This document shows positions 4,631-64,000 of a DNA stretch of 64,000 nucleotides, in pieces. A program made the translations under genes and the position numbers. The first letter of the stretch is position 1, and the number at the start of each line of letters is the position of its first letter. The stretch is from Gemmatimonadota bacterium (GTDB taxonomy: Bacteria; Gemmatimonadota; Gemmatimonadetes; Gemmatimonadales; GWC2-71-9). The stretch covers positions 74,158 to 138,157 of the forward strand of contig VGVQ01000009.1 in assembly GCA_016874005.1 (NCBI GenBank), read 5' to 3'. The notes under the pieces were generated by a model. That model had not been told where the DNA came from and ran no database searches. It saw nothing but the letters and a program-made list of their open reading frames with translations.

Positions 4631-4641
4631 TAGGAAGCGCC

Positions 4642-7229: not shown

Positions 7230-7238
7230 CCCGAGGAT

Positions 7239-50148: not shown

Positions 50149-50261
50149 GCGTGCTACCGTGTTCCCTTCCCTGTGGGGGTTAGTCCGCCACCGCCTTCAT
50201 CTCGGGCCACGAACCCCGCGGGGCACCCCGTGGCCGATCCGGCGATGTGTGGTGATCCTGG

Positions 50262-50666
50262 TTACCGCTTGCTGAACTGGAACCGCTTCCGGGCGCCTGG
50301 GCGACCCGGCTTCTTCCGTTCGACGGCTCGCGGATCGCGGGTCAGCAATCCGTTGGTCCGAAGTTTGGTCCGGTGCGTCGGGTCGACCCGCAACAGCGCC
50401 CGGGCAATGCCCATCCGGAGCGCTCCCGCCTGTCCGGTTACCCCGCCGCCGTCGCAATGGGCCCGCACGTCGAAGGCACCGAGCGTGTCGGTCGAGGAAA
50501 ACGGCTGCTGGATGTGCTGGACCAGCGACGGACGCGGGAAGTAGTCGCCGAGGGTCCGACCGTTGACTTCCCATTTGCCGGTGCCGGGGGTCAGGTAGAC
50601 GCGGGCAACACTGGTCTTCCGCCGGCCGACGCCGTGCCAGCGTAACTCAGGACTCGGGGTGGTCAT
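50262..50666 (-). CDS. rpsI: 30S ribosomal protein S9
   Basis: The product contains GRRKTSVARV, GGGVTGQAGALRMGIARAL and the C-terminal KRFQFSKR. Confidence 0.95.
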   Translation of the reverse strand: MTTPSPELRWHGVGRRKTSVARVYLTPGTGKWEVNGRTLGDYFPRPSLVQHIQQPFSSTDTLGAFDVRAHCDGGGVTGQAGALRMGIARALLRVDPTHRTKLRTNGLLTRDPRAVERKKPGRPGARKRFQFSKR

Positions 50667-51106
50667 GCGCTCACCTTGATCGCGAAGGGCTTGGGACCTT
50701 GGGCGCGGTGACGATCCGTTTCGCCAGCGTACACCTTGAGTTTGGTCCGAAGCCGCTGTTTGGTCAGCGAGTTCTTGGGCAACATGCCGAACACCGCCTT
50801 CTCGATGACCCGTTCCGGGTGCTTGTCGAGCAGGTTCTTGATCGGCGTGAACCGCTCGTGCCCCATGTAGCCGGTGTGACGGAAATACTCCTTCTTGTCG
50901 ACCTTGCCGCCGGTCAGCTTGACTTTGGCTGCGTTGACCACGACGACGAAATCGCCGCCGTCGACGTGGGGCGTGAAGGTCGGCTTGTGCTTGCCGCGAA
51001 TGAGCTGCGCCACGGTGCTCGCGAGGCGCCCGAGCGGCACTCCACTGGCGTCGACCAAATGCCAGTCGTGCCGAACGTCGTTCGGTTTGGCCGAGAATGT
51101 CTTCAT
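50663..51106 (-). CDS. rplM: 50S ribosomal protein L13
   Basis: The product starts MKTFSAKPNDVRHDWHLVDA and contains RHTGYMG. Its stop overlaps the rpsI start (ATGA). The ATG at 51118 is an alternative start. Confidence 0.9.
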   Translation of the reverse strand: MKTFSAKPNDVRHDWHLVDASGVPLGRLASTVAQLIRGKHKPTFTPHVDGGDFVVVVNAAKVKLTGGKVDKKEYFRHTGYMGHERFTPIKNLLDKHPERVIEKAVFGMLPKNSLTKQRLRTKLKVYAGETDRHRAQGPKPFAIKVSA

Positions 51107-51182
51107 TGCCAGATACACCCTACTCTCGTGAATCGATCTACTTGATCAGACGGCGGCCCGCTCGCTTTGCGGGAAGCCGCAC

Positions 51183-51212
51183 AAGATAGCCGCCAATCAC
51201 GACTTACGTCAA
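51183..51212 (-). promoter_or_regulatory. candidate sigma70-type promoter for rplM-rpsI
   Basis: The minus strand reads TTGACG-18 nt-TATCTT, about 75 nt upstream of rplM and immediately downstream of the terminator at 51225-51256. Confidence 0.3.
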
Positions 51213-51224
51213 GCTGTGGCGCCT

Positions 51225-51256
51225 AAAAAACTCAAAGGGGCCCCGACCGGGCCCCT
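51225..51256 (-). terminator. intrinsic terminator after the chimeric GT/cupin/ABM gene
   Basis: The minus strand reads AGGGGCCC-ggtcg-GGGCCCCT followed by TTGAGTTTTTT. It begins about 43 nt after the stop at 51299. Confidence 0.6.
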
Positions 51257-51298
51257 CCGACGTCAAATGGTACAACCCCCTTGCCGATAACGGCTTAG

Positions 51299-52471
51299 CT
51301 AGGGCTCGACTCGCTTCCAAAGGGTGATGTCCGTGAGCCACCCCTGTTCTTGGCGCTTGGTAAAGGACGCCTTGAGGTGAGGGGTGCGTTTGTGGGCCTC
51401 GAGCGCCGCGCTGTCGCGCCAGACCTCGAATCGAACGAACCGATTCGGCGCCCCGGCCGATTGGTAGAGATCGTACGCCAACGCCCCCGGCTCGGCCCGG
51501 GTCGGGGCGGTCAGCGCCAGCAACTCGCGCTTGAGCTCGTCCTCCCTGCCCTCCTTGCCGGTGATGAAAGTGAACGCGGTGATCAAGTCGGCCGCGACCT
51601 CGGCGCGCTCGCCCTTCAGCTCGATCAAGATGCCGTGGGCGTCCGTCTCCCCCACGTTGATCGGGGAATGGGTCACGGCCTCGCTGAACAGCACCTCACC
51701 AGGCTTGGCTTCGCGAACCCCTACTCGGCCATCCGGGAAAGTGAACCGGATCGTGAAAGGCTCGAGAACGTAGAGCACGTGGGCCGGGTGATCGTGGAGC
51801 ACCTCGCGATCGCCACGGCGGAGCTTGAAGTCCATGACCCGGACCCGACTGTTGTCGATCAGGACGCGATAGTTGCCGGGGTAGAGCGCCACCGGATCGA
51901 CCCGGAGATGACTGTTGGCAACGACCCGGTCCGCCGCCAGGAGTCCAGCGCGTTCGCGCTGAACGATCTCGGCGTTGCCGTCACCGCCGGTGCGGTCGAA
52001 CTCGATGGCGTGGATGTGGGCCACGATTGGGCGACCCGAAACGGCCCTGGCGCGCCGAGCGGCTTCGAAGGTAATCCAGTCGTGACAGTCGATGAGGTCA
52101 TGGGGTTCGCGGGCGGCAATCTCGGCGGCGACCGAAGCGAACCGCTCGACCTCGCGAAAGAGATCGGGGCCGTATACCAATCTGGTCCCGGTCCTGGGGC
52201 GTTTCAGGCTGGCGAACACCTCCCGATACTGGGCCTCGCCCGCGTAGGGCAGCAGGGGGGACGGGACCCGATGGACGGTCAGCCGCTCCTCGAGTTCCGG
52301 CGCCCCGACGAGCCGGAGGCCGGCGATGGGGTTCGACTCGACCGGAAACGGCACCACGAGGGTGACCTCGGTCCCCACCCGGAGAAGACCCTTTACGAGC
52401 CCAACGGTCGCGGTGGCGAGGCCGCCCGCCTGGTGGGGCGGGAATTCCCACCCGAACATCAGGACCCGCAC
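51299..52471 (-). CDS. chimeric protein: GT-B glycosyltransferase N-terminal half fused to cupin and ABM (antibiotic-biosynthesis-monooxygenase-like) domains
   Basis: The GTG at 52471 gives (M)RVLMFGWEFPPHQAGGLATAT, the N-terminus of glycogen-synthase/GT4-like enzymes. That similarity runs to about ...ADRVVANSH. The frame then continues into a cupin domain (YRVLIDNSRVRVMDFKLRRGDREVLHDHPAHVLYVLE...HSPINVGETDAHGILIELK). An ABM domain follows (ITAFTFITGKEGREDEL...RAEPGALAYDLYQS...FVRFEVWRDSAALEAHKRTPH). No GT-B C-terminal (nucleotide-sugar-binding) half is present. Confidence 0.6.
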   Translation of the reverse strand: MRVLMFGWEFPPHQAGGLATATVGLVKGLLRVGTEVTLVVPFPVESNPIAGLRLVGAPELEERLTVHRVPSPLLPYAGEAQYREVFASLKRPRTGTRLVYGPDLFREVERFASVAAEIAAREPHDLIDCHDWITFEAARRARAVSGRPIVAHIHAIEFDRTGGDGNAEIVQRERAGLLAADRVVANSHLRVDPVALYPGNYRVLIDNSRVRVMDFKLRRGDREVLHDHPAHVLYVLEPFTIRFTFPDGRVGVREAKPGEVLFSEAVTHSPINVGETDAHGILIELKGERAEVAADLITAFTFITGKEGREDELKRELLALTAPTRAEPGALAYDLYQSAGAPNRFVRFEVWRDSAALEAHKRTPHLKASFTKRQEQGWLTDITLWKRVEP

Positions 52472-52777
52472 GGGTTGGCTCCGGCTGCCGCCGTGCCGTG
52501 CTCCCAGCGATCGAGTACCGCCAAAACCCGGGCATACTCCCGATCGTAGCGGGGAGGGACAGCCGTCTGGTTCCGGCGGGATGCTGGTGGGTCGGCGCTC
52601 GAGGGCAATCAGGCTCCAGTACCGCAGTTGGTCGGTGAGAATCGGGGCCGGCTGATTGACCAACGCGACGCCATGATGACCGGTTCCCGTGGGATCGAAA
52701 CCGCGGGTGATGGCGTTTAGGGGGAGGCTTGGCGTTAATTCCTGGCCGGCGCGCTCAACCGACAGCCTGGGTAACAA

Positions 52778-53044
52778 ATGCAAGCTGAGCTCATTGCTGC
52801 CCGAATAATCGAGGGGTATCTCGTTGTCGGATTGATATTTGCGCTTTGGTTCATCGGCAGGGGCGCCGGCCGGCTCGACCCCGTCGCGAAGACCGGTTCG
52901 GCGGCGTTCCGACTGCTCTTGCTGCCGGCCAGCACGCTGCTGTGGCCCCTTCTCGCTTGGCGGATCGTTCGCGGTGGGCCGGCGCCCCCACCCGAGACCA
53001 ACGAACACCGGCGCCGCGCTCGCCGACTTGGATCGACCGAATGA
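52778..53044 (+). CDS. small membrane protein (2 predicted TM helices)
   Basis: The 88-aa product has two hydrophobic helices (YLVVGLIFALWFI and FRLLLLPASTLLWPLLAW). Its stop overlaps the next start (ATGA). It is the first gene after a 306-nt divergent intergenic region. Confidence 0.45.
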   Translation: MQAELIAARIIEGYLVVGLIFALWFIGRGAGRLDPVAKTGSAAFRLLLLPASTLLWPLLAWRIVRGGPAPPPETNEHRRRARRLGSTE

Positions 53045-53451
53045 TCCGCCGCCTGCGCCAGCGTCACCTGCTCCTCGTCACCGTCCTGATGGTTGGTGGG
53101 ACCATCGCGATCGTGGCCCAGGGCGGCTTCGCTGGGCCGCCCGTGGATCGATCGACTGACCTCCCCTCCGGACTCGGGCACCCGCCGTTTACGGGAGCGG
53201 CCGCGGCTATCGCGCAGACCCGTCAGCTCGACTCGGCCTCGGGGCCGGATCTACTGGTCTACCACGTCGAGCAAGAGGATTCGTTGGCCTTGCCGCCGCG
53301 GGCGGTCTTCCTGGGCCCCTTTCGCCGGCACCCCGCTCAGGTCGCCCGGTTGGTCGAGGGACTGCGAACCGGCGTCGTCCTGGTGTGGAGCGGCCCGCTT
53401 GGTCGGGTCGTCGCTGTGGCCCGGCTTGGCCCAGAGGGAGACGCCAAGTGA
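53041..53451 (+). CDS. membrane-anchored hypothetical protein
   Basis: The 136-aa product has an N-terminal anchor (LLLVTVLMVGGTIAIVA). It is translationally coupled to the upstream gene. I recognise no family motif. Confidence 0.4.
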   Translation: MIRRLRQRHLLLVTVLMVGGTIAIVAQGGFAGPPVDRSTDLPSGLGHPPFTGAAAAIAQTRQLDSASGPDLLVYHVEQEDSLALPPRAVFLGPFRRHPAQVARLVEGLRTGVVLVWSGPLGRVVAVARLGPEGDAK

Positions 53452-53463
53452 GCGTCCAAATAC

Positions 53464-55215
53464 GTGCCGGTCAACTGGAACCGCCAGAAACGACTTTACG
53501 ACCTCTGGGTGTCCTTGGGTACTCTGGCTCTGGTGGCGGGGTACGCCGTAGCCACCCTCGTCGTCCACCCGACCGCCACCGTCGAAACGGCTTTGATCAG
53601 GGGCCTCGGCTTCGCGGCGTTCCTGCTCCTGACCGTCATCCTGATGGTCGGACCCGCCAGCCGCCTCGACCGCCGTTTCCTGCCGTTGCTCTACAATCGC
53701 CGCCATCTCGGGGTGACCGTTGGCCTTCTCGGCCTGGCCCACGCCGCCTTCGTGCTCTTTCAGTACCACGCCCTCGGCAATACCGACCCGATCGCCAGCC
53801 TCCTCGCGATCCCGAGCACTCACGACGGGATTCCGTTCGAGTGGTACGGAATCGGGGCGGGCGTCGTCTTGTTCCTGATGGCAGCCACGAGCCATGACTA
53901 CTGGCTGTCGGTCCTCACACCGCCGGGGTGGAAGGCGCTCCACATGGCGGTGTATCCGGCCTACCTCGCCCTGCTCCTCCACGTCGGCCTGGGCCTGGGT
54001 CGCGCCGAACCCGCGCCGGTCTACCTCGCGACCGCGGGTCTGGCGGCGGTCCTGGTGGCTGCCATCCATCTGGTCGCCGCCCTCCGGGAGCGACGCGCTG
54101 ACCAGCCCGGCGGATCGGGACCTGATTGGGTCGACGTAGGGCCCGCCGATCGGATTCCCGAAGGACGGGCCATCACCCGGGTGGTCGCCGGCGAACGGGT
54201 GGCCGTCTTCCGCCACCAGGGGCGGGTCTCGGCGGTCTCGGGCGTCTGCAAGCACCAGAACGGCCCGCTCGGCGAAGGCAAGATCGTCGACGGCTGCATT
54301 ACCTGCCCATGGCACGGGTACCAGTACCGGCCCGAGGACGGAACCTCGCCGCCCCCGTTCACGGACTCGGTTCCGACCTTCAATCTCGCGGTCCGGGCCG
54401 GGAGAATCCTGGTCGACCCGGTGCCTAACCAACCTGGCACCCGGGTCGACCCGGTACCGGTGACGCCGCCGGCCGCGGTCGAGTCGGCGCCGTTCTACGT
54501 CGGCTACCTCCCGCCCCCGACCGGCCTCGTCCGGTTCCTGCGCGCCGTGCCGGCCGTGCTCCTGCTACCGCTCCTTGGCCTGATGGTGACGTTTGCCGCC
54601 GCCCAGCGTAGCTTCGATAGGGCGGTATTCGAGTATGGGACGGAGCGTACGATCCAGGGCACCGTGCGGACTGCGCCTTATCCGATGCTCGAGGTCGAAC
54701 GGCCCGGAACCGCGACCGTCAGCCGTTACCTGCTGGCCGGGTTCGGCAAACGGGGAGCCCAGGAGGCGACCGTCGGGCTCGACGGGAAGAAGGCCCGGAT
54801 CGTGGGCACCCTGGCCTACCGTGACAACCTGACCGTGCTCGAGATCGCCGGGGCCGAGCCCCTCGGACCCGGGAGGCCGGCGCCAGCGCCGCGGTCGGTG
54901 TCGGGGCGGTTGGACCTCGTTGGCGAGATCGTCGACGGCAAGTGCTACGCTGGGGTCATGAACCCGGGGCGCGGGGCGACTCACCGCGGCTGTGCCATCC
55001 GCTGTCTCGCGGGTGGTTTGACTCCCCTGTTCGTGATTCAAAACCAAGACGGAACCCTGGTGGAGATGATCCTCACGGACGACGCCGGTCACTCCCTGCC
55101 CCAAGCCGCCCGGTGGGCGGGACGCCCTGTCCAGGTATCCGGTCGGATCGAATCGCTCGACGACATCTGGTTTCTCCGCGTCGATCCTGCCACGATTCGT
55201 TCGGCGCATGACTGA
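53464..55215 (+). CDS. ferric-reductase-like transmembrane domain / Rieske [2Fe-2S] fusion protein with an uncharacterised C-terminal domain
   Basis: The N-terminal ~200 aa are polytopic with conserved-looking His residues (RRHLGV, LAHAAF, SHDYW, ALHMAVY), as in YedZ/MsrQ-type heme-b domains. A Rieske motif follows: CKHx16CPWH. After another TM segment comes a ~230-aa domain with a Cys cluster (GKCYAGVMNPGRGATHRGCAIRCLAGG). The start is a GTG. Confidence 0.65.
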   Translation: MPVNWNRQKRLYDLWVSLGTLALVAGYAVATLVVHPTATVETALIRGLGFAAFLLLTVILMVGPASRLDRRFLPLLYNRRHLGVTVGLLGLAHAAFVLFQYHALGNTDPIASLLAIPSTHDGIPFEWYGIGAGVVLFLMAATSHDYWLSVLTPPGWKALHMAVYPAYLALLLHVGLGLGRAEPAPVYLATAGLAAVLVAAIHLVAALRERRADQPGGSGPDWVDVGPADRIPEGRAITRVVAGERVAVFRHQGRVSAVSGVCKHQNGPLGEGKIVDGCITCPWHGYQYRPEDGTSPPPFTDSVPTFNLAVRAGRILVDPVPNQPGTRVDPVPVTPPAAVESAPFYVGYLPPPTGLVRFLRAVPAVLLLPLLGLMVTFAAAQRSFDRAVFEYGTERTIQGTVRTAPYPMLEVERPGTATVSRYLLAGFGKRGAQEATVGLDGKKARIVGTLAYRDNLTVLEIAGAEPLGPGRPAPAPRSVSGRLDLVGEIVDGKCYAGVMNPGRGATHRGCAIRCLAGGLTPLFVIQNQDGTLVEMILTDDAGHSLPQAARWAGRPVQVSGRIESLDDIWFLRVDPATIRSAHD

Positions 55216-56023
55216 GCCCCGTTTGGATCTCTTCTTTCCCGCAACCGCCGCGATCGCCTATCCGATCGAACCGGCCGCGGTCCCGAATTGCTCGATCGAA
55301 GCCGGACGTTACCAGGTGCGGTTCGCCAGGGCCGCCGACGATCTCGATCGGATCCTCGCCCTCCGCTACCAGATCTTCAACCTCGAACTCGGCGAAGGGC
55401 TCGACCAGTCGCACAGGAGCGGCCGCGACGAGGACGACCTCGACGGCCGAATGCATCACCTGATGATTCGCGACCGCCGTACTGACGAGGTGGTCGGAAC
55501 CTACCGGATGCAGACCGCCGACATGGCCGCCAGCCGCGGCGGCTTCTATTCGGCCCAGGAGTTCGATTTGGGACGGCTGCCGCGGGAGGTCATCGCCGCC
55601 TCGGTCGAGATCGGCCGGGCCTGCGTCGCTCGCGAGCATCGGAACGGTCGGGTCTTGAGCCTGTTGTGGCGCGGCCTCGCCGAATACCTCACCTGGAATC
55701 GGAAACACTTCCTCTTCGGGTGCTGCTCGCTCACCAGTCAGGATCCCGACCTCGGCGTCGACACCCACCGTTACCTCGAAGGGATCGGTGCGGCCCATCC
55801 AACGCTCGCCGTCCTCCCGCGGACGGGGTTCGAGTGTCGGCCAAGTCGGCCGCCGACGCCGGGGCCGGCCCACATTCCCGCCTTGTTCCAGAGCTACCTG
55901 AATCTCGGGGCCAAGGTGTTGGGACCGCCGGCGATCGACCGCCAGTTCAAGACGATCGACTGGCTGGTCATGCTCGACGTCCGGGAGATCGACCCGATGA
56001 CCTACCGCCATTTCTTCCGGTGA
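55208..56023 (+). CDS. olsB: OlsB-type N-acyl amino acid (lyso-aminolipid) synthase, GNAT-like
   Basis: The product contains ILALRYQIFNLELGEG...DEDDLDGRMHHLMIRDRRTDEVVGTYRMQ...VEIGRACVAREHRNG...ALFQSYLNLGAKV. This is the pattern of the OlsB/hemolysin-like acyltransferase family. The ATG overlaps the upstream gene by 8 nt. The head-group amino acid cannot be inferred. Confidence 0.7.
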   Translation: MTEPRLDLFFPATAAIAYPIEPAAVPNCSIEAGRYQVRFARAADDLDRILALRYQIFNLELGEGLDQSHRSGRDEDDLDGRMHHLMIRDRRTDEVVGTYRMQTADMAASRGGFYSAQEFDLGRLPREVIAASVEIGRACVAREHRNGRVLSLLWRGLAEYLTWNRKHFLFGCCSLTSQDPDLGVDTHRYLEGIGAAHPTLAVLPRTGFECRPSRPPTPGPAHIPALFQSYLNLGAKVLGPPAIDRQFKTIDWLVMLDVREIDPMTYRHFFR

Positions 56024-56874
56024 CGAATCCCGCGACGGAGGTTCGGCAGGAGGTCTACGGAGATCGTATCGGCCGTGATCTGCTCCGGCTGGTGCGTCGA
56101 GGCGAGTGGCCGGTGCTGTTCCGGCTCGGAGCCATCACCTGGTGGACCGGCGGCCTCCTGGTGGTGCTCCTGTCGGGGATGTGGCTCACCACCCCCTGGC
56201 CGAGTCGGCGGAGGCGATGGCGCAATGCCATCGTCAAGCGCTGGGCCAGGGGCATGGCCAGAATCGTGAACATGCGGATGGTGGTCGAAGGTCCGGTCCC
56301 ACCCGCGCCGTTCTTCTTGGTGTCGAACCACGTCAGCTACGTCGACATCGTCTTCTTGCTGGCCCATTTGGACGGCGTCTTCGTGGCCAAGCACGAACTC
56401 AACCAGTGGCCGGTCGTCGGCTACCTGACCCGCTTGGTGGGAACGATTTTCGTCAACCGACAAAGCCGTCGCGATTCCCTCCGCGTCATCGAGGCGATCG
56501 ATGCCCGGGTCGCCTCCGGCGATGGCGTCGTGGTCTTCCCCGAGGGCACCAGCTCGGACGGCGCTGACGTGCATCCGATGAAGGCGGCGCTGTTCGAATG
56601 GGCGGCCCAACGGGGCCACCCGATCCAGCACGCTGCCCTCCACTACCGGACCGCCGAGGGTGCTCCACCCGCGCGCGACGTCATTTGTTGGTGGGGCACG
56701 ATGTCGTTCCTACCGCACGTCCTCGATCTCTGTCGGCTGGGCGGCTTCACCGCCACGGTCCGTTTCGGAGCTGAGCCCTTGCTCGGAAACGATCGAGCCG
56801 CTCTGGCCGTACGGGCCCGTCACGCGATCGCGGCGAACTTCGTCGCGCATTCACCGAGGTCCAACTCGTTATGA
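56020..56874 (+). CDS. olsA: OlsA-type lyso-aminolipid O-acyltransferase (PlsC family)
   Basis: The GTG at 56020 overlaps the olsB stop (GTGA). An N-terminal TM helix is followed by the HX4D motif SNHVSYVD and by VVFPEGTSS. Confidence 0.7.
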   Translation: MTNPATEVRQEVYGDRIGRDLLRLVRRGEWPVLFRLGAITWWTGGLLVVLLSGMWLTTPWPSRRRRWRNAIVKRWARGMARIVNMRMVVEGPVPPAPFFLVSNHVSYVDIVFLLAHLDGVFVAKHELNQWPVVGYLTRLVGTIFVNRQSRRDSLRVIEAIDARVASGDGVVVFPEGTSSDGADVHPMKAALFEWAAQRGHPIQHAALHYRTAEGAPPARDVICWWGTMSFLPHVLDLCRLGGFTATVRFGAEPLLGNDRAALAVRARHAIAANFVAHSPRSNSL

Positions 56875-57363
56875 TCGACCCCAACCGTCAGTGCCTCGCG
56901 CAAGGCACCGAGCTACTCCAGGCTCTCACCGATGCCCAATACGCCGAGCCGCGCGGCGACTGGGCACCCGTCGGCGCCCAGTATCGTCATGTGCTCGATC
57001 ACTACCAATGCTTCCTCGACGGACTCGAGGGGGGACGGATCGATTACGACACCAGGTCCCGCGATCCGGATCTGGAGCGGAACCGGAAGGTCGCCCTCGA
57101 GGCAACGGCGCACCTCGCTGCCCGTCTGGCCGAGGCGACGGACATCGACCCCGATCGGCCCCCTGTTGATTCAACTGCAATGCGAGGCCGGTACCGAGTC
57201 ATGGAGTCGCTCGACGCTCGGGCGCGAGCTCCAGTTCCTGGTGAGTCACTCGGTTCACCACTTCGCCCTGATCAAGCTCCTCCTGGCCAACGATGGCCCG
57301 GTGCTGCCCCGGGAATTCGGCGTCGCTCCTTCGACTCTGAGCCACCAGGGCGCCCTTCGCTGA
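56871..57363 (+). pseudogene. DinB-family protein, reading frame broken by a 1-nt shift in a C5 run (authentic frameshift or sequencing error)
   Basis: The N-terminal ~97 codons (frame of 56871) read ...YRHVLDHYQCFLDGL... The C-terminal ~67 codons (frame +1) read LLIQLQCEAGTESWSRSTLGRELQFLVSHSVHHFALIKLL and end at TGA 57361-57363, 1 nt before the next start. The two frames join at CCCCC 57159-57163. Removing one C restores ...DIDPDRPLLIQLQ... Confidence 0.55.
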
Positions 57364-57364
57364 C

Positions 57365-58090
57365 GTGTGCACGGTAAGCTGGCTCCCGTCCCGGCGCGGG
57401 TACTGGCTGTTCGTGTCGCGCGATGAGCGCCTGACGCGAGCTCGCGCGGTGCCGCCGAGCCGTCGCCTGGTCGGGGCCGTCCGGATCTTGGCGCCAACCG
57501 ATGCCACGGCGCTGGGCACCTGGGTGGGCGTCAATCAGCACGGCGTCGCGGCGACGCTGCTCAACCGGTACGCGGACGCCGCCGACCTACCCACTCCGGG
57601 CACCGTGAGTCGAGGATTGCTGGTGCACTCGGTCCTGATGGCCCGCTCTGCCCCGGAGTTGATCGACCGGGTTCGGCGTGCCTCCCTCGGGCGCCATCAA
57701 CCGTTCACCATCGTGGCGATCGACAGCCGGCACCGCTGCCTGATCGGCGACTGGGACGCCCGGGAGTTCGAGGTCGACCGGGGACCGGAAGTCGGCCTGG
57801 TCCGAACCAGCTCGGGCCGGGACCAGGCCGAGGCCGAGCGCTCTCGCGCCGCCGCGTTCGCGGACCTGGCGAAAGACCAACGCCCGAGCGCCGCCCTCCT
57901 GGCCGCTTTTCACCGGGGGCATTGGCCGGCCAGGGGGCCGTTCTCGGTCTGTATGCACCGCGAGGAAGCGGCCACGAGGAGCCTCACCGTGGTGCGACTG
58001 CGGCCCACTCGGGCCACCATGTGGTATTGGGATGGCCCGCCCTGCCACCGGCCCAGGGTCGCTCGGCGGACCCTGACCCGGTCCCGATGA
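57365..58090 (+). CDS. NRDE/TANGO2-family protein
   Basis: A GTG start is followed directly by Cys ((M)CTVSWLP...), the N-terminal Cys typical of this Ntn-hydrolase-like family. The ~240 aa length also fits. This is a motif-level call from memory. Confidence 0.6.
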   Translation: MCTVSWLPSRRGYWLFVSRDERLTRARAVPPSRRLVGAVRILAPTDATALGTWVGVNQHGVAATLLNRYADAADLPTPGTVSRGLLVHSVLMARSAPELIDRVRRASLGRHQPFTIVAIDSRHRCLIGDWDAREFEVDRGPEVGLVRTSSGRDQAEAERSRAAAFADLAKDQRPSAALLAAFHRGHWPARGPFSVCMHREEAATRSLTVVRLRPTRATMWYWDGPPCHRPRVARRTLTRSR

Positions 58091-60684
58091 GCAAACGACC
58101 GAGGATCGCCCGGTGGATTCTGGCCGGGTACATCGTCTTGCTGGGACTCTCCAACGCGGTCCGCAGCGGGAACCCTCGGGGCGAACCGCCGGCGCCGGAC
58201 GAGCGCATCGTGACCATCGCGGGAGCCGACCGCGAGCTGGTCCGGATAGCATTGCGAGATACCGCCGCCGCAGGGGCAACCGGACTCCCGGTTCTGCTCC
58301 TCCACGGGAGCCCCGGCGACAACGGCGAGGTCTCTGGCATTGCCCGTCGGCTCGCGGGCAAACGACGAGCTATCGCGCCTGACCTGCCGGGGTTCGGCGG
58401 ATCGACCTGGACCATCCCCGACTACTCGATCGACGCGCACGCCCGCTACTTGCCCGCCCTGCTCGACTCACTCGGCCTCGCCAGGGTTCACGTCCTCGGC
58501 TTCAGCATGGGGGGCGGTGTGGCGCTCAAATTGGCCACCATCGCCCCGGAACGGGTGGCGTCCTTGGTCCTGCTTTCGTCGATCGGGGCCCAGGAGTACG
58601 AGTTGCTCGGCGACTACCATCTCAACCGTTCGATCCACGCCCTCCAGCTCGGACTGATCTGGGCGGTCGAAGAATTGACCCCCCATTTCGGGCGGCTCGA
58701 CGGCGGGTTTCTGACCCGGGAGTACGCCCGCAATTTCTACCACACCGACCAGCGGCCCCTGCGCGACGCGATGGCAACCTACCGGGGTCCCGCGCTGATC
58801 ATCCAGGGTGACCGAGACGGCTTGGTCCACCCGGCGGTGGCCCGAGAGTCTCACCGGCTGATGCCTCAGAGCGAGCTGGCGATGTTCGATGGCCCTGGCG
58901 CCGATCATTTCATCGCGTTTCGCCAGCCCGATTCCGTGGCCGTGCTGACGGAGCAGTTCCTCGATCGGGTCGATCGGAACGAAGCGCCGACCCGGGCCAC
59001 CGCGGACCCGGGCCGAGTCGCCTTGGCGGAGGCGCCGTTCGACCCCGGCTCGGTGCCGCCGGCGGTCGGCATCGCGCTGGTGGTGCTCGTCCTCCTGATC
59101 GCGGCCGCCACCTTCGTCAGCGAAGACCTGGCCTGCATTGCCACCGGTCTACTGGTGGCCCGGGGGACGCTGGCGTTCGGGGCCGGCACGATGGCGTGTC
59201 TGATCGGGATCTTCCTCGGCGACATCTGGCTCTTCCTGATGGGGCGATGGCTCGGCCGGCCGGCGTTGCGACGGATCCCGCTCCGGTGGTTCGTCTCGCC
59301 CGCCGCGGTCGACCGATGCGCGCGGTGGTTTGACCAGCGGGGTGCCTGGCTGATCCTGGCCACCCGCTTCGTGCCGGGGACGCGACTACCGACCTATTTC
59401 GCCGCGGGTGTGCTCCACGCCAGCGTGGTCGCCTTTCTGGGTGCCTTCCTCCTGGCCGCGGCGCTGTGGACACCGCTGCTCGTCGGGGCGAGCGCCCTCT
59501 TCGGCGACCGGGTGCTCGCCACCTTCGTCTCCTATCGGAGTTGGGCCCTCCCTTCCCTGCTGCTGCTGGCCATCGGGCTGTTCGTCCTGCTCAAGCTGGT
59601 GGTACCGCTGTTCTCCTGGCGGGGCCGGCGGTTGTTGCTCTCCCGGTGGCGACGCCTGACCCGGTGGGAGTTCTGGCCGCGCTGGGCGTTCTATCCGCCG
59701 ATCGTCGTCTACCTGCTGTGGCTGGCACTCAAACATCGGAGCCTAACGCTTTTCACCGCGGTGAATCCGGCCATCCCGGGCGGTGGCTTCGTCGGCGAAT
59801 CGAAGGCCCAGATCCTCCTGGGCCTCGCCCGGCGCCCCGAGGCGGTGGCGCGGTGGCGGCTGATTCCCGAGGCCATGCCCAGCGAGCGGCAAGGCATGGT
59901 GGCGCGGTTCATGGAGGACGCGGCTCTCGACTACCCGATCGTCCTCAAGCCCGACGTGGGCGAGCGCGGCGGTGGCGTCGGAATTCTCCGATCCGAGGCC
60001 GAAGTCGAGCGGTATCTGGCCGGAACCACCGAACCACTCATCGCGCAGGAATACGTTCCCGGCGTGGAGTTCGGGATCTTCTATTACCGGGTGCCGGGGA
60101 ACGACCGCGGCACCATCTTCGCCATCACGGACAAACGGTTCCCCACGGTGACCGGCGACGGCGCCGGCACCCTCGAGCGGCTGATCCTGGCCGACGACCG
60201 CGCCGTCTGCATGGCGCGGTTCTTTCTCGGCCTGCACGCCGAGCGACTCGACTGGGTACCGCCGAAAGGTGAGATCGTCCCCTTGGTCGTGCTGGGAACC
60301 CACAGTCGCGGCTCGGCGTTCTTCGATGGCGAGTGGATCCGGACCCCGGCGCTGGAGGCCGCCATCGACGAGCTGAGTCGGACCTTCGACGGGTTCTGGT
60401 TCGGCCGGTACGACGTGCGCGCCCCGTCTGCTGAGGCGCTGATGGCGGGGGTCGACTTCAAAGTGCTCGAGCTCAACGGGGCGACGGCGGAAGCCACCAG
60501 CATCTACGATCCGAAGAACAGCCTGATGACGGCATACCGAGTGCTCTGCCGCCAGTGGGCGATCCTGTTCGATATCGCGGGGAAGAACGTCGCGGCTGGG
60601 GCCCGTCCATCCAGCTGGCGCGAGCTGTGGGAACTGATCGGCCGGCACCGACGTTCCATTGGCGCGCACGTCGACGTGACCTGA
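58087..60684 (+). CDS. three-domain fusion: alpha/beta hydrolase - DedA/VTT membrane domain - ATP-grasp ligase
   Basis: The ATG at 58087 overlaps the upstream stop (ATGA). Residues ~1-300 have a TM anchor plus LLLHGSPGD, the nucleophile elbow GFSMGGG, and GDRDGLV...GADHF. Residues ~330-520 are DedA-like (VSEDLACIATGLLV, FLGDIWLFLMGRWLG, RFVPGTRLPTYFAAGV). Further TM helices follow. Residues ~640-865 are ATP-grasp-like (YPIVLKPDVGERGGGVGIL, LIAQEYVPGVEFGIFYY, VLELNGATAEATS). Confidence 0.7.
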   Translation: MSKRPRIARWILAGYIVLLGLSNAVRSGNPRGEPPAPDERIVTIAGADRELVRIALRDTAAAGATGLPVLLLHGSPGDNGEVSGIARRLAGKRRAIAPDLPGFGGSTWTIPDYSIDAHARYLPALLDSLGLARVHVLGFSMGGGVALKLATIAPERVASLVLLSSIGAQEYELLGDYHLNRSIHALQLGLIWAVEELTPHFGRLDGGFLTREYARNFYHTDQRPLRDAMATYRGPALIIQGDRDGLVHPAVARESHRLMPQSELAMFDGPGADHFIAFRQPDSVAVLTEQFLDRVDRNEAPTRATADPGRVALAEAPFDPGSVPPAVGIALVVLVLLIAAATFVSEDLACIATGLLVARGTLAFGAGTMACLIGIFLGDIWLFLMGRWLGRPALRRIPLRWFVSPAAVDRCARWFDQRGAWLILATRFVPGTRLPTYFAAGVLHASVVAFLGAFLLAAALWTPLLVGASALFGDRVLATFVSYRSWALPSLLLLAIGLFVLLKLVVPLFSWRGRRLLLSRWRRLTRWEFWPRWAFYPPIVVYLLWLALKHRSLTLFTAVNPAIPGGGFVGESKAQILLGLARRPEAVARWRLIPEAMPSERQGMVARFMEDAALDYPIVLKPDVGERGGGVGILRSEAEVERYLAGTTEPLIAQEYVPGVEFGIFYYRVPGNDRGTIFAITDKRFPTVTGDGAGTLERLILADDRAVCMARFFLGLHAERLDWVPPKGEIVPLVVLGTHSRGSAFFDGEWIRTPALEAAIDELSRTFDGFWFGRYDVRAPSAEALMAGVDFKVLELNGATAEATSIYDPKNSLMTAYRVLCRQWAILFDIAGKNVAAGARPSSWRELWELIGRHRRSIGAHVDVT

Positions 60685-60698
60685 CGCCGGAGCCTGCC

Positions 60699-61106
60699 AT
60701 GGACATGATGCCGCTCACCAAACCCGCCCTGATCGCGAGCTGGATCTGCCAGATCGTCGCCGCGGTGATCCTCGGCCAGACCCTCTACTTCAAGTTCACC
60801 GGGGCACCCGAGTCGGTCTATATCTTCTCGACCCTCGGCGCCGAACCCTGGGGCCGGATCGGCAGCGGGATCTTGGAACTGCTAGCGGTGGCGCTGCTGT
60901 TGTACCCCAGAACCCCGGCGATCGGAGCCGCCCTGGCCGTCGGCTTGATGGTCGGCGCCATCGGCGCCCACCTCACCAAACTGGGCATCGAGGTCCAGGG
61001 CGATCGGGGGACGCTCTTCGGGCTCGCCGTGGCGGTCGCGATTTCGTCGCTCATCGTGCTGGCCATTCGACGCCGCGAACTCCCGATCGTGGGCGGCTGG
61101 CTCTAG
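60699..61106 (+). CDS. DoxX-family membrane protein
   Basis: The 135-aa product has four hydrophobic helices and a DoxX-like pattern (GRIGSGILELLAVALLL, GAIGAHL). It starts 15 nt after the upstream stop. Confidence 0.7.
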   Translation: MDMMPLTKPALIASWICQIVAAVILGQTLYFKFTGAPESVYIFSTLGAEPWGRIGSGILELLAVALLLYPRTPAIGAALAVGLMVGAIGAHLTKLGIEVQGDRGTLFGLAVAVAISSLIVLAIRRRELPIVGGWL

Positions 61107-61134
61107 CTCGCCATCTCCCGAGGCACCAACCAGG

Positions 61135-61180
61135 CGGCTACCTTGCAGCGGTGAGGCTCACCCTAACCGCGCGGTAGCCG
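61135..61180 (+). promoter_or_regulatory. stable stem-loop abutting the start codon of the Rieske-flavoprotein gene
   Basis: CGGCTACC (61135-61142) pairs with GGTAGCCG (61173-61180). An inner GGTGA-ggc-TCACC hairpin is also present. The 3' arm ends 1 nt before the ATG at 61182, and no unpaired Shine-Dalgarno sequence is visible. Confidence 0.3.
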
Positions 61181-61181
61181 G

Positions 61182-62282
61182 ATGTCCAACTCGCAGTGGC
61201 ACGACCTCGGCCCAGCCGACCAGTTCGCCGCCAAGCCGCTCCAGCAGGTTGTCATCGGCCGCACCCGGATCGCCCTGTCGTTTCGCGACGGCACCTTCGC
61301 CGCGATCTCGGGCGCCTGCAATCATGTGGGCGGTCCGCTCGGCGATGGCCGGCTGGATGGCGAGTACGTCGTCTGCCCGTGGCACAATTGGAAATACCAT
61401 CGGACAACCGGGGCCGGCGAACCCGGGTATGAAGCGGAGACCGTGCCCAGATACCAGGTCGAGGTGCGAGAGGGGCATTTGTGGATCGACCTGACCCCAG
61501 CCGGGAAGCGAAACCGGATCCCCCACGAGCCCCACGCCCTGGCCCGTCCGGTCGTGCGGGAGGCCGGCCCCCTCCGGGTCGCCGGGATCTCGACCACGGC
61601 CATCGACGAAGCCAACCCCCGGTTCTCGACCTCCGAGGCCCTGCTGGCCGCCGCGCTGGCGCATGCCAAGGGTCGCGGCGCGGAGACCCGCCTGATTCGG
61701 CTGAGCTCGCTTTTCTTTCGTCACTGCGAGGGCTACTACTCCAAGAGCGCTCAGGCCTGTACCTGGCCGTGCTCGATCACCCAGATGGACCCCAACGACC
61801 AGATGGACCAGGTCTACGAGGCGATGGTCCATTGGGCGGACGTGGTGATGGTGGCGACACCGATCCGCTGGGGCGCGGCCAGTTCCCTGTATTTCAAGAT
61901 GGCCGAGCGCCTCAACTGTGTGCAGAACCAGACGACCATCCGGGACCGGGTTCTGATCCGCAACAAGGTCGCGGCCTTCATCGTCACCGGTGGCCAGGAC
62001 AACGTCCAGGGAACGGTGGGCCAGATGCTGACGTTTTTCGGCGAGCTCGGGTTCGTCTTCCCCCAGTTCCCGTTCATCGCCCACTCCCGCGGCTGGTCGG
62101 CGGAAGACATGGAGAACAACGTCCGCGTCGTTCGAGACAGCGCCGAGCTCCGCGAGGGCGCCGAGCAGCTGATCGACCGGTCGCTGGAGGTGGCGAAGCA
62201 CCTGCTCGCCTCGGCGCCGCCCAACACCGTGGCTCGCGGCGGCCGCAAAGCTCACCCCGTCAATGGAGGACAGCCGGCATGA
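61182..62282 (+). CDS. Rieske [2Fe-2S] domain fused to a flavodoxin-like NAD(P)H:FMN reductase domain
   Basis: The N-terminus has the Rieske motif CNHx16CPWH. The C-terminal ~230 aa resemble flavodoxin-fold FMN reductases or iron-sulfur flavoproteins (LRVAGISTTA...DVVMVATPIRWGAASS...AAFIVTGGQDN). An extra Cys triad, CEGYYSKSAQACTWPC, is present. Confidence 0.65.
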   Translation: MSNSQWHDLGPADQFAAKPLQQVVIGRTRIALSFRDGTFAAISGACNHVGGPLGDGRLDGEYVVCPWHNWKYHRTTGAGEPGYEAETVPRYQVEVREGHLWIDLTPAGKRNRIPHEPHALARPVVREAGPLRVAGISTTAIDEANPRFSTSEALLAAALAHAKGRGAETRLIRLSSLFFRHCEGYYSKSAQACTWPCSITQMDPNDQMDQVYEAMVHWADVVMVATPIRWGAASSLYFKMAERLNCVQNQTTIRDRVLIRNKVAAFIVTGGQDNVQGTVGQMLTFFGELGFVFPQFPFIAHSRGWSAEDMENNVRVVRDSAELREGAEQLIDRSLEVAKHLLASAPPNTVARGGRKAHPVNGGQPA

Positions 62283-62947
62283 CGCCAACGCGTCGCGATT
62301 TCCTGGAACGCCTGGCCGCCGGAACGGCGGCGGCGGCGGGTTTGACGAGCTTGAGCCCGGACGACCTGGCCGCGATCTCGTCGGTACAGGAGACCTGGGA
62401 TACCTCGTGGACCGGCCGGATTCGCGGCAGACACAAAGCCGTCTTCGACGCGACGGAAATCGAGGACGGCGCCGGCGTGCTCAGGGTGATGATCTGGCGG
62501 ATGCAATACGGCCAGGTCCTCGCGGTGGCTCCCGACGACATGGCCGCGGTGCTGGTCATCCGACACAACGCCATTCCGCTCGCCATGACCCAGGAATTCT
62601 GGGATCGCTATCGGATCGGTGAGACCAAGGGCGTCAAGCACCCGATGACGGAGCAGCCGACCGCCAAGAACCCGGCCTTGCTGTCGAGCGACACCGGCGA
62701 CCTACCCTCGCAGTTCGCCAGCCTGAACCTCCCCGGGATCCTTGCCGCCGGCGGGATCGTGCTGGCCTGCAATCTGGCGTTCAGTCAATGTGTCGGCACG
62801 GTGGCCAAGGAGGACAAGCTCGAGCCGGCAGCGGCCCGCAAGCGGGCCCTCGAGATGCTCCACCCGGGGGTGATCCTCCAGCCGTCCGGCGTGTTCGCCA
62901 GCATCCTGGCCCAGGAACATGGCTGCCGGTATCTGAAAGCGAGCTGA
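62279..62947 (+). CDS. Tat-signal protein of unknown function (possibly DsrE/YchN-like fold)
   Basis: The ATG overlaps the upstream stop (ATGA). The N-terminus MTPTRRDFLERLAAGTAAAAG is a twin-arginine signal. The fold assignment is tentative. Confidence 0.45.
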   Translation: MTPTRRDFLERLAAGTAAAAGLTSLSPDDLAAISSVQETWDTSWTGRIRGRHKAVFDATEIEDGAGVLRVMIWRMQYGQVLAVAPDDMAAVLVIRHNAIPLAMTQEFWDRYRIGETKGVKHPMTEQPTAKNPALLSSDTGDLPSQFASLNLPGILAAGGIVLACNLAFSQCVGTVAKEDKLEPAAARKRALEMLHPGVILQPSGVFASILAQEHGCRYLKAS

Positions 62948-62955
62948 GGTTTTCG

Positions 62956-64000
62956 GTGGACCTCGTCACGGCGTCGATCCCGCTTTTCTTCCTGCTCATC
63001 GGGGTGGAGCTGCTGGTCGCGCGGTGGCGCCATCACCGAGTCTATCGGCTGGCCGATTCCCTGACCGATCTGTCGCTCGGCACCATGAGCCAGTTGGCGG
63101 GGGTGTTCGTCGCGGTCGGGACGATCGCGCTGTACGCCTGGGTCGCCGCTGCATTCTCGGTCCAGTCGCTCATCGGCGCCCCCGCCTGGATCGCTCGGCC
63201 CCCGTGGTCCGCCAGCGGCGCCGATCTGGCCGCCGCGGCGTCATGGGCCACGGTGTTCCTGCTCGACGACCTGGCCTATTACTGGACCCACCGCTGCTCG
63301 CATGAGGTCAATCTGCTCTGGGCCGGCCATGTGGTCCACCATTCGAGCGAGGAGTATAACCTAACAGTAGCCCTACGGCAGAGCGGGCTCCACGGCTTGT
63401 TCACTTGGGTCTTCTATCTTCCGCTGGCCTTGGCCGGCGTTCCGGTGACGATGTGGGTCACCTGTCACGCCCTCAACCTGATCTATCAATTCTGGATTCA
63501 CACTCGGGAGATCGATCGACTCCCGCGGCCGTTCGAGGCGATCCTCAACACCCCGTCTCACCATCGGGTCCATCACGGCATCAACCCGAGGTATCAGGAC
63601 AAGAACTACGCTGGCGTCTTCATCATCTGGGATCGGTTGTTCGGCACCTTCGAGCCCGAACGAGAGCCGCCGGTCTATGGAATCACCAAGCCGCTGGCGA
63701 GCTGGAATCCGGTCTGGGCCAATCTCCACGTCTTCGCCGACATCGCCAGGACGGTCGTGCGGGCTCGCGGCTGGCGCGACCGCTGGCGGGTCATCTTCGG
63801 CCGTCCGGGATGGCGGCCGGCCGAGCTGGGACCGTCCGAGCGACTCCGGGCCGTCGATCCGGACTCCTATCACAAGTATGACCCGCCCGCCCCGGGCGCG
63901 GTGCGAGCCTACGCCGTGGTGCAGTTCGCCGCGGTCGTCGCCGCCTCGCTGGCGCTGCTGACCGCGGCCGACGGCCTGCCGCCGAGCCAGCGCCTGGCCG
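62956..64000 (+). CDS. fatty-acid-hydroxylase-superfamily membrane di-iron oxygenase (sterol desaturase / alkylglycerol monooxygenase-like), 3' partial
   Basis: This ORF is not in the supplied track because it is open to the window end. My own translation from the GTG at 62956 gives VDLVTASIPLFFLLIGVELL... It has the His boxes HRCSH, HVVHHSSEEYNLTVALRQS, WIHT and HHRVHH. There is no stop before 64000. Confidence 0.8.
   Translation, partial: MDLVTASIPLFFLLIGVELLVARWRHHRVYRLADSLTDLSLGTMSQLAGVFVAVGTIALYAWVAAAFSVQSLIGAPAWIARPPWSASGADLAAAASWATVFLLDDLAYYWTHRCSHEVNLLWAGHVVHHSSEEYNLTVALRQSGLHGLFTWVFYLPLALAGVPVTMWVTCHALNLIYQFWIHTREIDRLPRPFEAILNTPSHHRVHHGINPRYQDKNYAGVFIIWDRLFGTFEPEREPPVYGITKPLASWNPVWANLHVFADIARTVVRARGWRDRWRVIFGRPGWRPAELGPSERLRAVDPDSYHKYDPPAPGAVRAYAVVQFAAVVAASLALLTAADGLPPSQRLA

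Follow-up and report, generated by a model that had tools for sequence, protein, structure and literature searches.

A gene cluster of a Gemmatimonadota bacterium points to an undescribed aminolipid modification and translocation module

Amino-acid lipids are widespread in bacterial membranes. We analysed a stretch of 64,000 nucleotides from a Gemmatimonadota bacterium (GenBank assembly GCA_016874005.1, contig VGVQ01000009.1, positions 74,158–138,157 of the forward strand), which is referred to as the window and numbered from its first letter. A run of nine co-directional genes at 52778–61106 (genes 1–9, Table 1) contains an OlsB-like and an OlsA-like acyltransferase gene (genes 4 and 5), followed by genes for a DinB-fold protein (gene 6), an NRDE/TANGO2-family protein (gene 7) and a hydrolase-DedA-ATP-grasp fusion protein (gene 8). 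The cluster points to a known kind of pathway, the synthesis of aminolipids, joined by a modification and translocation module that has no earlier description. The component superfamilies are known, but their combination, the unclassified ATP-grasp family and the C-terminal domain of the gene 3 product are not described in the literature. Full-text literature searches found no description of the cluster, and two reviews of aminolipids (PMC11631085, published in 2024, and PMC12971839, published in 2026) mention no ATP-grasp, DedA, DinB or NRDE partner. According to the latter, the known modifications of aminolipids are only hydroxylation, N-methylation and taurine transfer (PMC12971839).

The gene order recurs in other genomes. 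A scan of one genome per GTDB species with an ATP-grasp alignment confirmed at least 540 relatives (species), and the best 80 loci were examined. Synteny was counted by tblastn with each window protein in 56 of these 80 loci, namely those whose sequence extends 5 kb or more upstream of the ATP-grasp domain. On the strand and in the order of the window, the OlsB-like and the OlsA-like proteins were each found in 48/56 loci, DinB in 49/56, the NRDE/TANGO2 protein in 40/56, the alpha/beta hydrolase domain in 48/56 and the DedA domain in 55/56. A preliminary description of the window had made its claim hinge on synteny in other genomes, and this synteny is found: in 48 of the 56 loci, from several phyla, the OlsB/OlsA pair immediately precedes DinB, NRDE and gene 8. 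Two further loci, retrieved by an exact-protein look-up, have the identical five-gene core. The labels of the 56 loci include Gemmatimonadota, Acidobacteriota/Blastocatellia, Calditrichaceae, Gammaproteobacteria, Ardenticatenales, Opitutales and Verrucomicrobiota among others, and Polarisedimenticola is among the Acidobacteriota labels of the best 80; shorter loci labelled KSB1 and Cytophagia also carry the ATP-grasp domain. Taxon labels are given as written in the records, and some look unreliable. All loci in which the ols genes join the module belong to metagenome-assembled genomes (MAGs). The cluster is also present in MAGs labelled Heliomicrobium, Heliobacteriaceae or Clostridia (loci L023, L030, L031, L032, L037, L042, L044 and L061); their identity to the window resembles that of the Blastocatellia loci, and these labels look doubtful.

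In a high-GC genome, closely packed operon genes are nothing unusual; the recurrence of the order across phyla exceeds chance. All-against-all clustering of the open reading frames (ORFs) of the best 80 loci, which was heavily contaminated by the antisense shadow ORFs typical of high-GC DNA, gave no further partner common to several phyla. The remaining recurrent neighbours occur in a single Gemmatimonadales clade only and therefore reflect common descent. Such common descent could in principle account for the whole neighbourhood, with ornithine-lipid genes standing beside unrelated, co-inherited membrane genes, and close Gemmatimonadales relatives do share unrelated flanks (an ABC transporter, PilZ and an amidohydrolase). 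These flanks, however, vanish outside the one clade, whereas the order of OlsB, OlsA, DinB, NRDE and gene 8 persists across phyla; in addition, the genes overlap by 4–8 nt and domain fusions join three of the parts. A meaningless neighbourhood was already disfavoured on these grounds and is scarcely credible.

The gene 8 protein consists of an N-terminal helix, an alpha/beta hydrolase domain (residues ~50–310), a DedA/VTT domain (~320–510), and a membrane-proximal helix with an ATP-grasp domain (527–865, nucleotides 59665–60684). The hydrolase part matched Abhydrolase_1 (PF00561) with 94.4 bits against a cut-off of 25.8 and has the nucleophile elbow GFSMGG (GxSxG), while the triad's Asp and His were placed by visual inspection only. 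The DedA part matched VTT_dom (PF09335) with 60.1 bits against 33.9. The last 339 residues scored under the cut-offs of all Pfam ATP-grasp families (RimK was the best with 16.6 against 21, and ATP-grasp_3 and GSH-S_ATP were lower), and a search of the PDB with the domain sequence gave marginal matches only (glutathione synthase, E = 0.039). An AlphaFold model of the domain, built with 16 sequences, had a pLDDT of 88.4. Foldseek matched this model to 423 PDB chains at E ≤ 0.001 with a probability of 1.00 and E values of ~1e-11 to 1e-8 for the closest relatives; the top matches were cyanophycin synthetase (CphA1; 7wae/7txv, E ~1e-11) and GshAB (3ln6/3ln7), followed by many Ddl structures. The motifs VLKPDxGERGxGV, Q128, FGRYD and ELNG, which correspond to nucleotide and Mg binding, are invariant in the 16 sequences, and the Lys, the Gly-rich loop and the Mg-binding acidic and Asn residues that mark the superfamily are conserved. 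Judging from the modelled fold, the C-terminal part of gene 8 is a carboxylate-amine ligase of the ATP-grasp type and belongs to a family that is not captured by Pfam. Its fold and its nucleotide/Mg-binding motifs are common to the G domain of cyanophycin synthetase, GshAB and Ddl. Unlike these enzymes, to which its identity is 10–20%, it is preceded by a conserved membrane helix and is fused or adjacent to a DedA domain.

Gene 8 has 1926 homologues, of which the best are full-length with 55–71% identity, and those named by source come from Gemmatimonadota. At E ≤ 1e-30, the ATP-grasp family comprises 1545 clusters (50% identity) among 1.8 billion representative proteins; these fall into three size groups, as expected for hydrolase-DedA-ATP-grasp, DedA-ATP-grasp and stand-alone ATP-grasp proteins. 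The gene 8 domains are separate neighbouring genes elsewhere, in Paracoccus denitrificans and Salinivibrio kushneri, and the fusion therefore provides gene-fusion (Rosetta-stone) evidence of joint function. Stand-alone members from Komagataeibacter xylinus E25 (locus L084, 7926–9011) and Salinivibrio kushneri (locus L087, 6926–8038) are named 'D-alanine--D-alanine ligase' in RefSeq. The stand-alone members have 9–16% identity to the Ddl structures matched by Foldseek and lie beside DedA/DinB/NRDE or in unrelated contexts, and the name is probably wrong for these proteins.

The acyltransferase pair was assigned by profile searches. Gene 4 matched Acetyltransf_5 (PF13444) over its full length (profile positions 1–102 of 102) with 101.9 bits against 22.4. 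Its best NCBIfam models were the OlsB equivalogs NF052554 and NF052555, with scores of 129.5 and 115.5 bits that lie below the respective cut-offs of 350 and 320. The same pattern was seen in all 22 of the 22 cluster-linked OlsB-like homologues, for which the OlsB models came first yet stayed below cut-off (best E value 1.6e-42). The preliminary description had left room for a GNAT function unrelated to lipids; by the NCBIfam profiles, the protein instead falls in the OlsB/OlsF/GlsB group of aminolipid N-acyltransferases, and it would make an N-(3-hydroxyacyl) amino acid. The OlsB-like proteins of the cluster have 47–73% identity across phyla. Gene 5 matched the PlsC-type Acyltransferase family (PF01553) with 78.2 bits against 23, contains the motifs NHVSYVD (HX4D) and FPEGTSS, and scored 139.3 and 113.4 bits with the OlsA equivalogs NF052553 and NF052552, below their cut-off of 300. 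With scores at ~40% of the curated equivalog thresholds, the proteins of the OlsB-like and OlsA-like pair make up a distinct, well-conserved subfamily. In the window as in the OlsB/OlsA pathway (also GlsB/GlsA and OlsF), the gene of an N-acyltransferase of the Acetyltransf_5 family comes first, and that of an HX4D PlsC O-acyltransferase lies next to it and overlaps it. The window pair differs from that pathway in its partners, which are an ATP-grasp ligase, DedA, DinB and NRDE; of the described modifiers, neither a hydroxylase (OlsC, OlsD or OlsE) nor the methylase OlsG was found in its neighbourhood.

Gene 7 matched TANGO2 (PF05742) with 46.4 bits against 22.6, although only profile positions 18–127 of 257 were aligned. 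The single sequence gave no match in the PDB and a profile was needed; the profile of the cluster NRDE homologues found human TANGO2 (8sv7 and 9bwa, E = 0.0012) as the best PDB match. The N-terminus M/V-C-T, which contains Cys2, is invariant in 46/46 homologues alignable from residue 1, and the window protein begins with M-C-T. Within 57365–57445, the NRDE motif reads SRDE in the window and in locus L057 and NRDE in 44/46 homologues. Human TANGO2 was proposed to be a Cys N-terminal-nucleophile hydrolase acting on fatty-acid derivatives, with the Asn of the NRDE motif among the proposed catalytic residues (2026 crystal structure; PMC13044924), and TANGO2 binds acyl-CoA via the NRDE region (PMC11867700). 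A bacterial homologue, HtpA of Shewanella, was assigned to heme trafficking (PMC10470608). Gene 7 shares with the TANGO2/NRDE family the Pfam family, the invariant N-terminal Cys2 and the NRDE motif region. Unlike HtpA, it is set among lipid acyltransferase genes, and the window copy has SRDE. Gene 7 is a putative Cys N-terminal-nucleophile amidase or acyltransferase.

Gene 6 had been presented as an ordinary member of the nine-gene run, but it is not an intact ORF. The frame that starts at ATG 56871 ends at 57377, and the stop at 57363 is in the +1 frame. The N-terminal half is encoded in the 56871 frame and the C-terminal half (…RELQFLVSHSVHHFALI…) in the frame ending at 57363, with the join at the C5 run 57159–57163. 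When one C is removed, a protein of 163 amino acids results that matches DinB_2 (PF12867) with 39.1 bits over profile positions 10–128 of 128; the unrepaired first frame scored 26.2 bits against a cut-off of 24.8. Nine of nine relatives examined have an intact DinB gene of ~165–180 amino acids. The invariant His residues of the DinB proteins are H40 of an RH motif and those of SHxxHH, and the best PDB match of the DinB profile was 3dka, a DinB-like protein (E = 0.009). The frameshift may stem from a sequencing error in the homopolymer, or the mutation may be real and inactivate the gene. Programmed frameshifting was considered and rejected, as all relatives are single-frame and the shift lies in a plain C5 run.

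On the sequence and model evidence, the balance tips modestly towards a composite membrane-lipid locus, in which an aminolipid made by OlsB/OlsA would gain an ATP-dependent extra amide bond and would then be flipped and edited. In the pathway that we infer, with its substrate, ligation direction, topology and accessory enzyme roles, the OlsB-like enzyme would, from its family membership, N-acylate an amino acid with a 3-hydroxy fatty acid. The OlsA-like enzyme would esterify a second fatty acid, giving an acyloxyacyl amino-acid lipid with a free carboxylate and possibly a free amine. The ATP-grasp domain, which its own helix and DedA would tether to the cytoplasmic side of the membrane, would add one amide bond to this lipid. 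The likeliest chemistry would be conversion of the head-group alpha-carboxylate to an acyl phosphate that is joined to an amine (an amino acid or taurine), a model adopted because an alpha-carboxylate, from an amino acid or a peptide, is the group activated by all of the nearest ATP-grasp relatives. The fused DedA domain would move the lipid across or within the membrane. By analogy, the alpha/beta hydrolase and the NRDE Cys-nucleophile enzyme might remove or exchange ester- and amide-linked groups in editing or turnover, and the DinB metalloenzyme might perform some metal-dependent step on the head group. Genes 1–3, DoxX and a downstream Rieske-flavoprotein may represent an optional transmembrane electron-transfer module that is attached in some lineages.

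A comparable division of labour is found in MprF, an aminoacyl-phosphatidylglycerol synthase-flippase that uses aminoacyl-tRNA and has the partner hydrolases AhyD, PA0919 and AcvB. Only the logic is shared, namely a cytoplasmic head-group-modifying domain fused to a lipid-translocating domain, with a trimming or reversing hydrolase alongside. The cluster, unlike MprF, uses an ATP-grasp ligase, DedA/VTT and an alpha/beta hydrolase; the folds and the chemistry are unrelated, and no homology is claimed. As to the chemistry, ATP-dependent transfer of taurine onto the carboxyl group of ornithine lipid, which occurs in cerilipin synthesis, is a known activity whose gene is still unassigned (PMC12971839). 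Joining the carboxylate of an aminolipid to an amine at the expense of ATP is the reaction type expected of an ATP-grasp ligase, and given this taurine transfer, ATP-dependent amide chemistry on aminolipids therefore exists. ATP-grasp homologues are present in Komagataeibacter, Novacetimonas and Gluconacetobacter; the Acetobacteraceae copies are stand-alone, in mobile or unrelated contexts, and no Gluconobacter protein was found among the named entries of the 120 best ATP-grasp matches. Judged phyletically alone, the result is neutral with respect to a link to cerilipin.

The proposal in the preliminary description that the cluster makes, modifies, translocates or turns over an aminolipid is thus upheld in part: the synteny, the OlsB group and the ATP-grasp fold fit head-group extension. 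Several points weigh against this aminolipid pathway. The scores of the OlsB-like and OlsA-like proteins lie far under the equivalog cut-offs and do not define the amino-acid substrate. With DinB frameshifted and the NRDE motif changed to SRDE, the locus in the window is maybe partly defective. The ligation might also run in another direction, as ATP-grasp enzymes can activate fatty acids too. The membrane side of the gene 8 hydrolase is ambiguous, as gene 8 has an N-terminal hydrophobic helix and the separate hydrolase of Paracoccus has none; a firm periplasmic placement was rejected on this conflicting evidence. Finally, 8/56 loci are without OlsB and OlsA, and DedA/ATP-grasp/DinB/NRDE occur without adjacent ols genes in Vibrionaceae and Opitutales, with partial ols-free sets in Paracoccus and Azospirillum. 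The substrate therefore need not be an OlsB/OlsA product.

With no ols gene beside it, the ATP-grasp family also occurs on chromids and plasmids of cultured Proteobacteria. In Salinivibrio kushneri, four consecutive genes are annotated in RefSeq as a VTT domain protein, a 'D-alanine--D-alanine ligase', a DinB family protein and an NRDE family protein, and Vibrio aquimaris has DedA/ATP-grasp/DinB/NRDE and then DoxX. Paracoccus denitrificans PD1222 has ATP-grasp and alpha/beta hydrolase genes with a VTT protein on the opposite strand and no more of the set; Azospirillum has a DedA-ATP-grasp fusion, and Komagataeibacter and Gluconacetobacter have the ATP-grasp gene alone. In Opitutales, DinB, NRDE and gene 8 are followed by a family-1 (EryCIII/UDPGT-like) glycosyltransferase (locus L070, 11032–12333), with no OlsB/OlsA.

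Salinivibrio, Vibrio and Opitutales, with the four-gene module and no adjacent ols genes, and the partial sets of Paracoccus and Azospirillum would fit a module that acts on another membrane carboxylate or amine, for example an undecaprenyl-linked precursor, phosphatidylserine or another phospholipid, the ols genes being fellow envelope genes. Consistent with such a substrate, the undecaprenyl-phosphate transporter UptA is the best NCBIfam model for the DedA part, Ddl-type ATP-grasp enzymes act on peptidoglycan precursors, and RefSeq gives some members the Ddl name. The UptA score, however, is 48 bits, far under the cut-off of 250, and the conserved neighbours include no gene for peptidoglycan or lipid II. 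Moreover, the constant placement of OlsB/OlsA immediately upstream, mostly overlapping, in 48/56 loci is hard to explain without a shared substrate. We consider this alternative unlikely.

The choice of the activated carboxylate separates the aminolipid pathway from another possibility, in which a free fatty acid would be activated as an acyl phosphate by the ATP-grasp domain and the hydrolase would serve as O-acyltransferase, so that the module would add more acyl chains or would be an independent, ATP-driven aminolipid synthase with OlsH/OlsI-like logic. There are precedents for both enzymes. ATP-grasp enzymes that activate a fatty acid via an acyl phosphate make N-acyl histidine in Legionella, according to work cited in PMC11631085. 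In Singulisphaera, OlsH forms lyso-ornithine lipid with a free fatty acid at the expense of ATP, and OlsI, an alpha/beta hydrolase, acts as the O-acyltransferase (PMC12971839). The combination of ATP-grasp, hydrolase and DedA without ols genes in Paracoccus would also be accommodated. On the other hand, the nearest structural relatives activate alpha-carboxylates of amino acids or peptides and not fatty acids, and the hydrolase domain is absent in 8/56 loci while OlsB/OlsA are usually present, indicating that the module is not normally self-sufficient. Fatty-acid activation is accordingly judged rather improbable.

The unity of all nine genes, as put forward in the preliminary description, holds for the ordered core of OlsB, OlsA, DinB, NRDE and gene 8 and does not extend to the remainder: genes 1–3 are separable, and DoxX varies in position and strand. 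Genes 1–3 lie upstream of the lipid genes in 10/56 loci (seven Gemmatimonadota, one Acidobacteriota, one Gammaproteobacteria and one unclassified MAG) and nearby on the opposite strand in loci L049 and L058. Searches of Pfam and NCBIfam gave no family match for genes 1 and 2. A simple hydropathy scan, on which the topology statements rest, indicated two transmembrane segments in gene 1, and homologues with 41–72% identity occupy the equivalent slot in loci L003, L004, L007, L008, L018, L039, L053, L057, L064, L072 and L083. Gene 2 is poorly conserved, and its positional homologues are below the tblastn cut-off used; those in L003, L053, L064 and L072 share MIRxLRxRH, a membrane helix and then LLVYW, and a gene of 192 amino acids occupies the slot in L083.

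Gene 3 matched Ferric_reduct (PF01794; 36.9 bits against a cut-off of 28) and Rieske (PF00355; 59.3 bits against 20.3). The protein comprises a six-helix ferric-reductase-type heme-b domain, a Rieske [2Fe-2S] domain (residues 221–317), a seventh helix and a C-terminal domain of ~200 residues. Two His pairs, with spacings of 12 and 13 residues, are located in predicted helices 3 and 5, and the Rieske ligand motifs CxH/CxxH are present as CKH and CPWH. The Rieske and C-terminal domains are predicted by the hydropathy scan to be on opposite sides of the membrane. The C-terminal domain (54454–55215) has no Pfam match. Its family, which has a membrane helix, contains 81 homologues, mostly stand-alone proteins of ~250 amino acids without a Pfam match, and all source-named ones are called hypothetical. 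The invariant motif of the family is GEIVDxKC…GxMxPG…HxxCAxxCxxGG, with the invariant residues D161, K163, C164, M169, P171, H177, C180 and C184 (three Cys and one His). A structure model with a pLDDT of 90.4 showed a helix and two OB-like barrels, and a Foldseek search of the PDB with it returned only generic tandem OB-fold proteins with a TM-score of ~0.2 and no functional analogue. Loci L053, L064, L072 and L083 encode the heme-b/Rieske part in one gene and the C-terminal part in another, and gene 3 of the window unites two genes that stand apart elsewhere. MsrQ/YedZ and NOX-type proteins have in common with gene 3 a Ferric_reduct domain, His pairs in two helices and a redox partner domain at the membrane. 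Unlike them, gene 3 has a fused Rieske domain, a new Cys/His-motif domain predicted across the membrane and no MsrP partner; its score with the MsrQ model (NF003831) was 16.4 bits against a cut-off of 130.

Gene 9 matched DoxX_2 (PF13564) with 30.5 bits against 26.3 and has three helices by the hydropathy scan. A DoxX homologue is located within 9 kb of the ATP-grasp domain in 23/56 loci, on either side and on either strand. A possible tenth member starts 75 nt past the DoxX stop, co-directionally, and scored 51.3 bits with Rieske and 43.0 bits with FMN_red; homologues with 70–78% identity were found in the same downstream position in L003, L005, L006, L007 and L033 only. In the cultured planctomycete Engelhardtia mirabilis (locus L083, CP036287), the four-gene redox set stands alone with no lipid gene after it. 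Soluble enzymes fused to a Rieske domain lie beside the redox module in L072 (~8.8 to 6.7 kb on the upstream side of the ATP-grasp match) and in L083, where two of them precede the redox set (4347–8044). The Rieske fusions seen were with a glutamate-synthase/flavin mononucleotide (FMN)-dependent dehydrogenase, a thiamine pyrophosphate enzyme and, at 61182–62282 of the window, an FMN reductase. This suggests that soluble enzymes with an N-terminal Rieske domain are dedicated electron donors to the heme-b/Rieske membrane module.

The redox genes invite the idea that all nine genes build and maintain a lipid-anchored thiol or another redox-active head group. Here, OlsB/OlsA would provide the anchor, the ATP-grasp domain would ligate a cysteine-like amine, and DedA would flip the product to the outer leaflet. 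DinB as an S-transferase and NRDE as a conjugate amidase would conjugate and de-conjugate it, and DoxX with the heme-b, Rieske and Cys-motif domains would exchange electrons across the membrane. By analogy, the set of a ligase, an amidase and a DinB-fold enzyme parallels mycothiol and bacillithiol metabolism. GshAB is among the closest ATP-grasp matches, DoxX recurs with the module, including in Vibrio, and the domain predicted across the membrane from the Rieske domain has the three invariant Cys and one invariant His. Nevertheless, this scheme rests wholly on analogy. In neither the DinB nor the ATP-grasp proteins was a thiol-specific motif identified, and the redox module is present in only ~1/5 of the loci and is alone in Engelhardtia. 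A thiol head group is highly improbable in our judgement.

The layout of the locus is summarized in Table 1. All eight gene junctions given in the preliminary description are present in the sequence exactly as it had them, and its domain calls were all correct according to the Pfam profile search and, for the ATP-grasp part, the structure model. ATGA overlaps are found at 53041–53044 (genes 1/2), 56871–56874 (genes 5/6) and 58087–58090 (genes 7/8), a GTGA overlap at 56020–56023 (genes 4/5) and an overlap of 8 nt at 55208–55215 (genes 3/4). Gaps of 12 nt (53452–53463) and 14 nt (60685–60698) separate genes 2/3 and genes 8/9, respectively. At the gene 6/7 junction, TGA at 57361–57363 is followed after 1 nt by a GTG start at 57365. 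The G+C content of 52778–61106 is 65–71%, which is similar to the surroundings. A promoter and terminator scan of 52300–62600 gave 0 promoter-like sites and 4 terminator-like sites, with 4.9 expected by chance, and cannot guide the question of a single transcript. An Rfam scan of 50000–64000 gave no match, and a repeat search found short repeats at chance level only.

Table 1 Features of the gene cluster in the window.
Feature	Coordinates	Strand	Product
Gene 1	52778..53044	+	88 aa (amino acids), two predicted membrane helices
Gene 2	53041..53451	+	136 aa, one N-terminal membrane helix and a soluble domain of ~108 aa
Gene 3	53464..55215	+	583-aa Ferric_reduct/Rieske/Cys-His-motif fusion
Gene 4	55208..56023	+	271-aa OlsB-like N-acyltransferase
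Gene 5	56020..56874	+	284-aa OlsA-like PlsC-family O-acyltransferase
Gene 6	56871..57363	+	DinB-fold protein, frameshifted in the window
Gene 7	57365..58090	+	241-aa NRDE/TANGO2-family protein
Gene 8	58087..60684	+	865-aa alpha/beta hydrolase-DedA-ATP-grasp membrane protein
Gene 9	60699..61106	+	135-aa DoxX-family integral membrane protein
Possible tenth member	61182..62282	+	366-aa soluble fusion of Rieske and FMN reductase

Divergent from gene 1, an ORF of 569 amino acids is located on the minus strand at 51299–53008. It joins in frame the N-terminal half of a GT4/GT5 glycosyltransferase (residues 181–369) and an ABM monooxygenase (476–547), with an unassigned stretch between the two parts; the C-terminal glycosyltransferase domain is absent. 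This ORF may have arisen by rearrangement or truncation, or it may be an assembly chimera. In L057, the matching divergent position is occupied by a homologue of the glycosyltransferase part. Just past this ORF, rplM (ribosomal protein L13; 150.8 bits with Pfam) lies on the minus strand at 50663–51118.

The gene for ATP-dependent taurine transfer to aminolipids has been missing since the 1970s. In the cluster, a bacterial relative of TANGO2 also appears in a lipid-acyl setting. Deficiency of TANGO2 is a disease in humans, and the molecular function of the protein is debated between lipid/acyl-CoA metabolism and heme handling. If the reading as a lipid-anchored thiol were true, the lipid would be a membrane-embedded counterpart of glutathione and mycothiol, and the TANGO2 family would have a defined lipid-amidase role. 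Cultured carriers of the ols-free module include Salinivibrio kushneri, Vibrio aquimaris, Paracoccus denitrificans PD1222 and Azospirillum lipoferum 4B. The ATP-grasp family, with at least 540 GTDB species and ~1,500 clusters at 50% identity, is large, conserved, uncharacterised and genetically tied to aminolipid synthases, and it is predicted to perform ATP-dependent amide-bond chemistry at the membrane.

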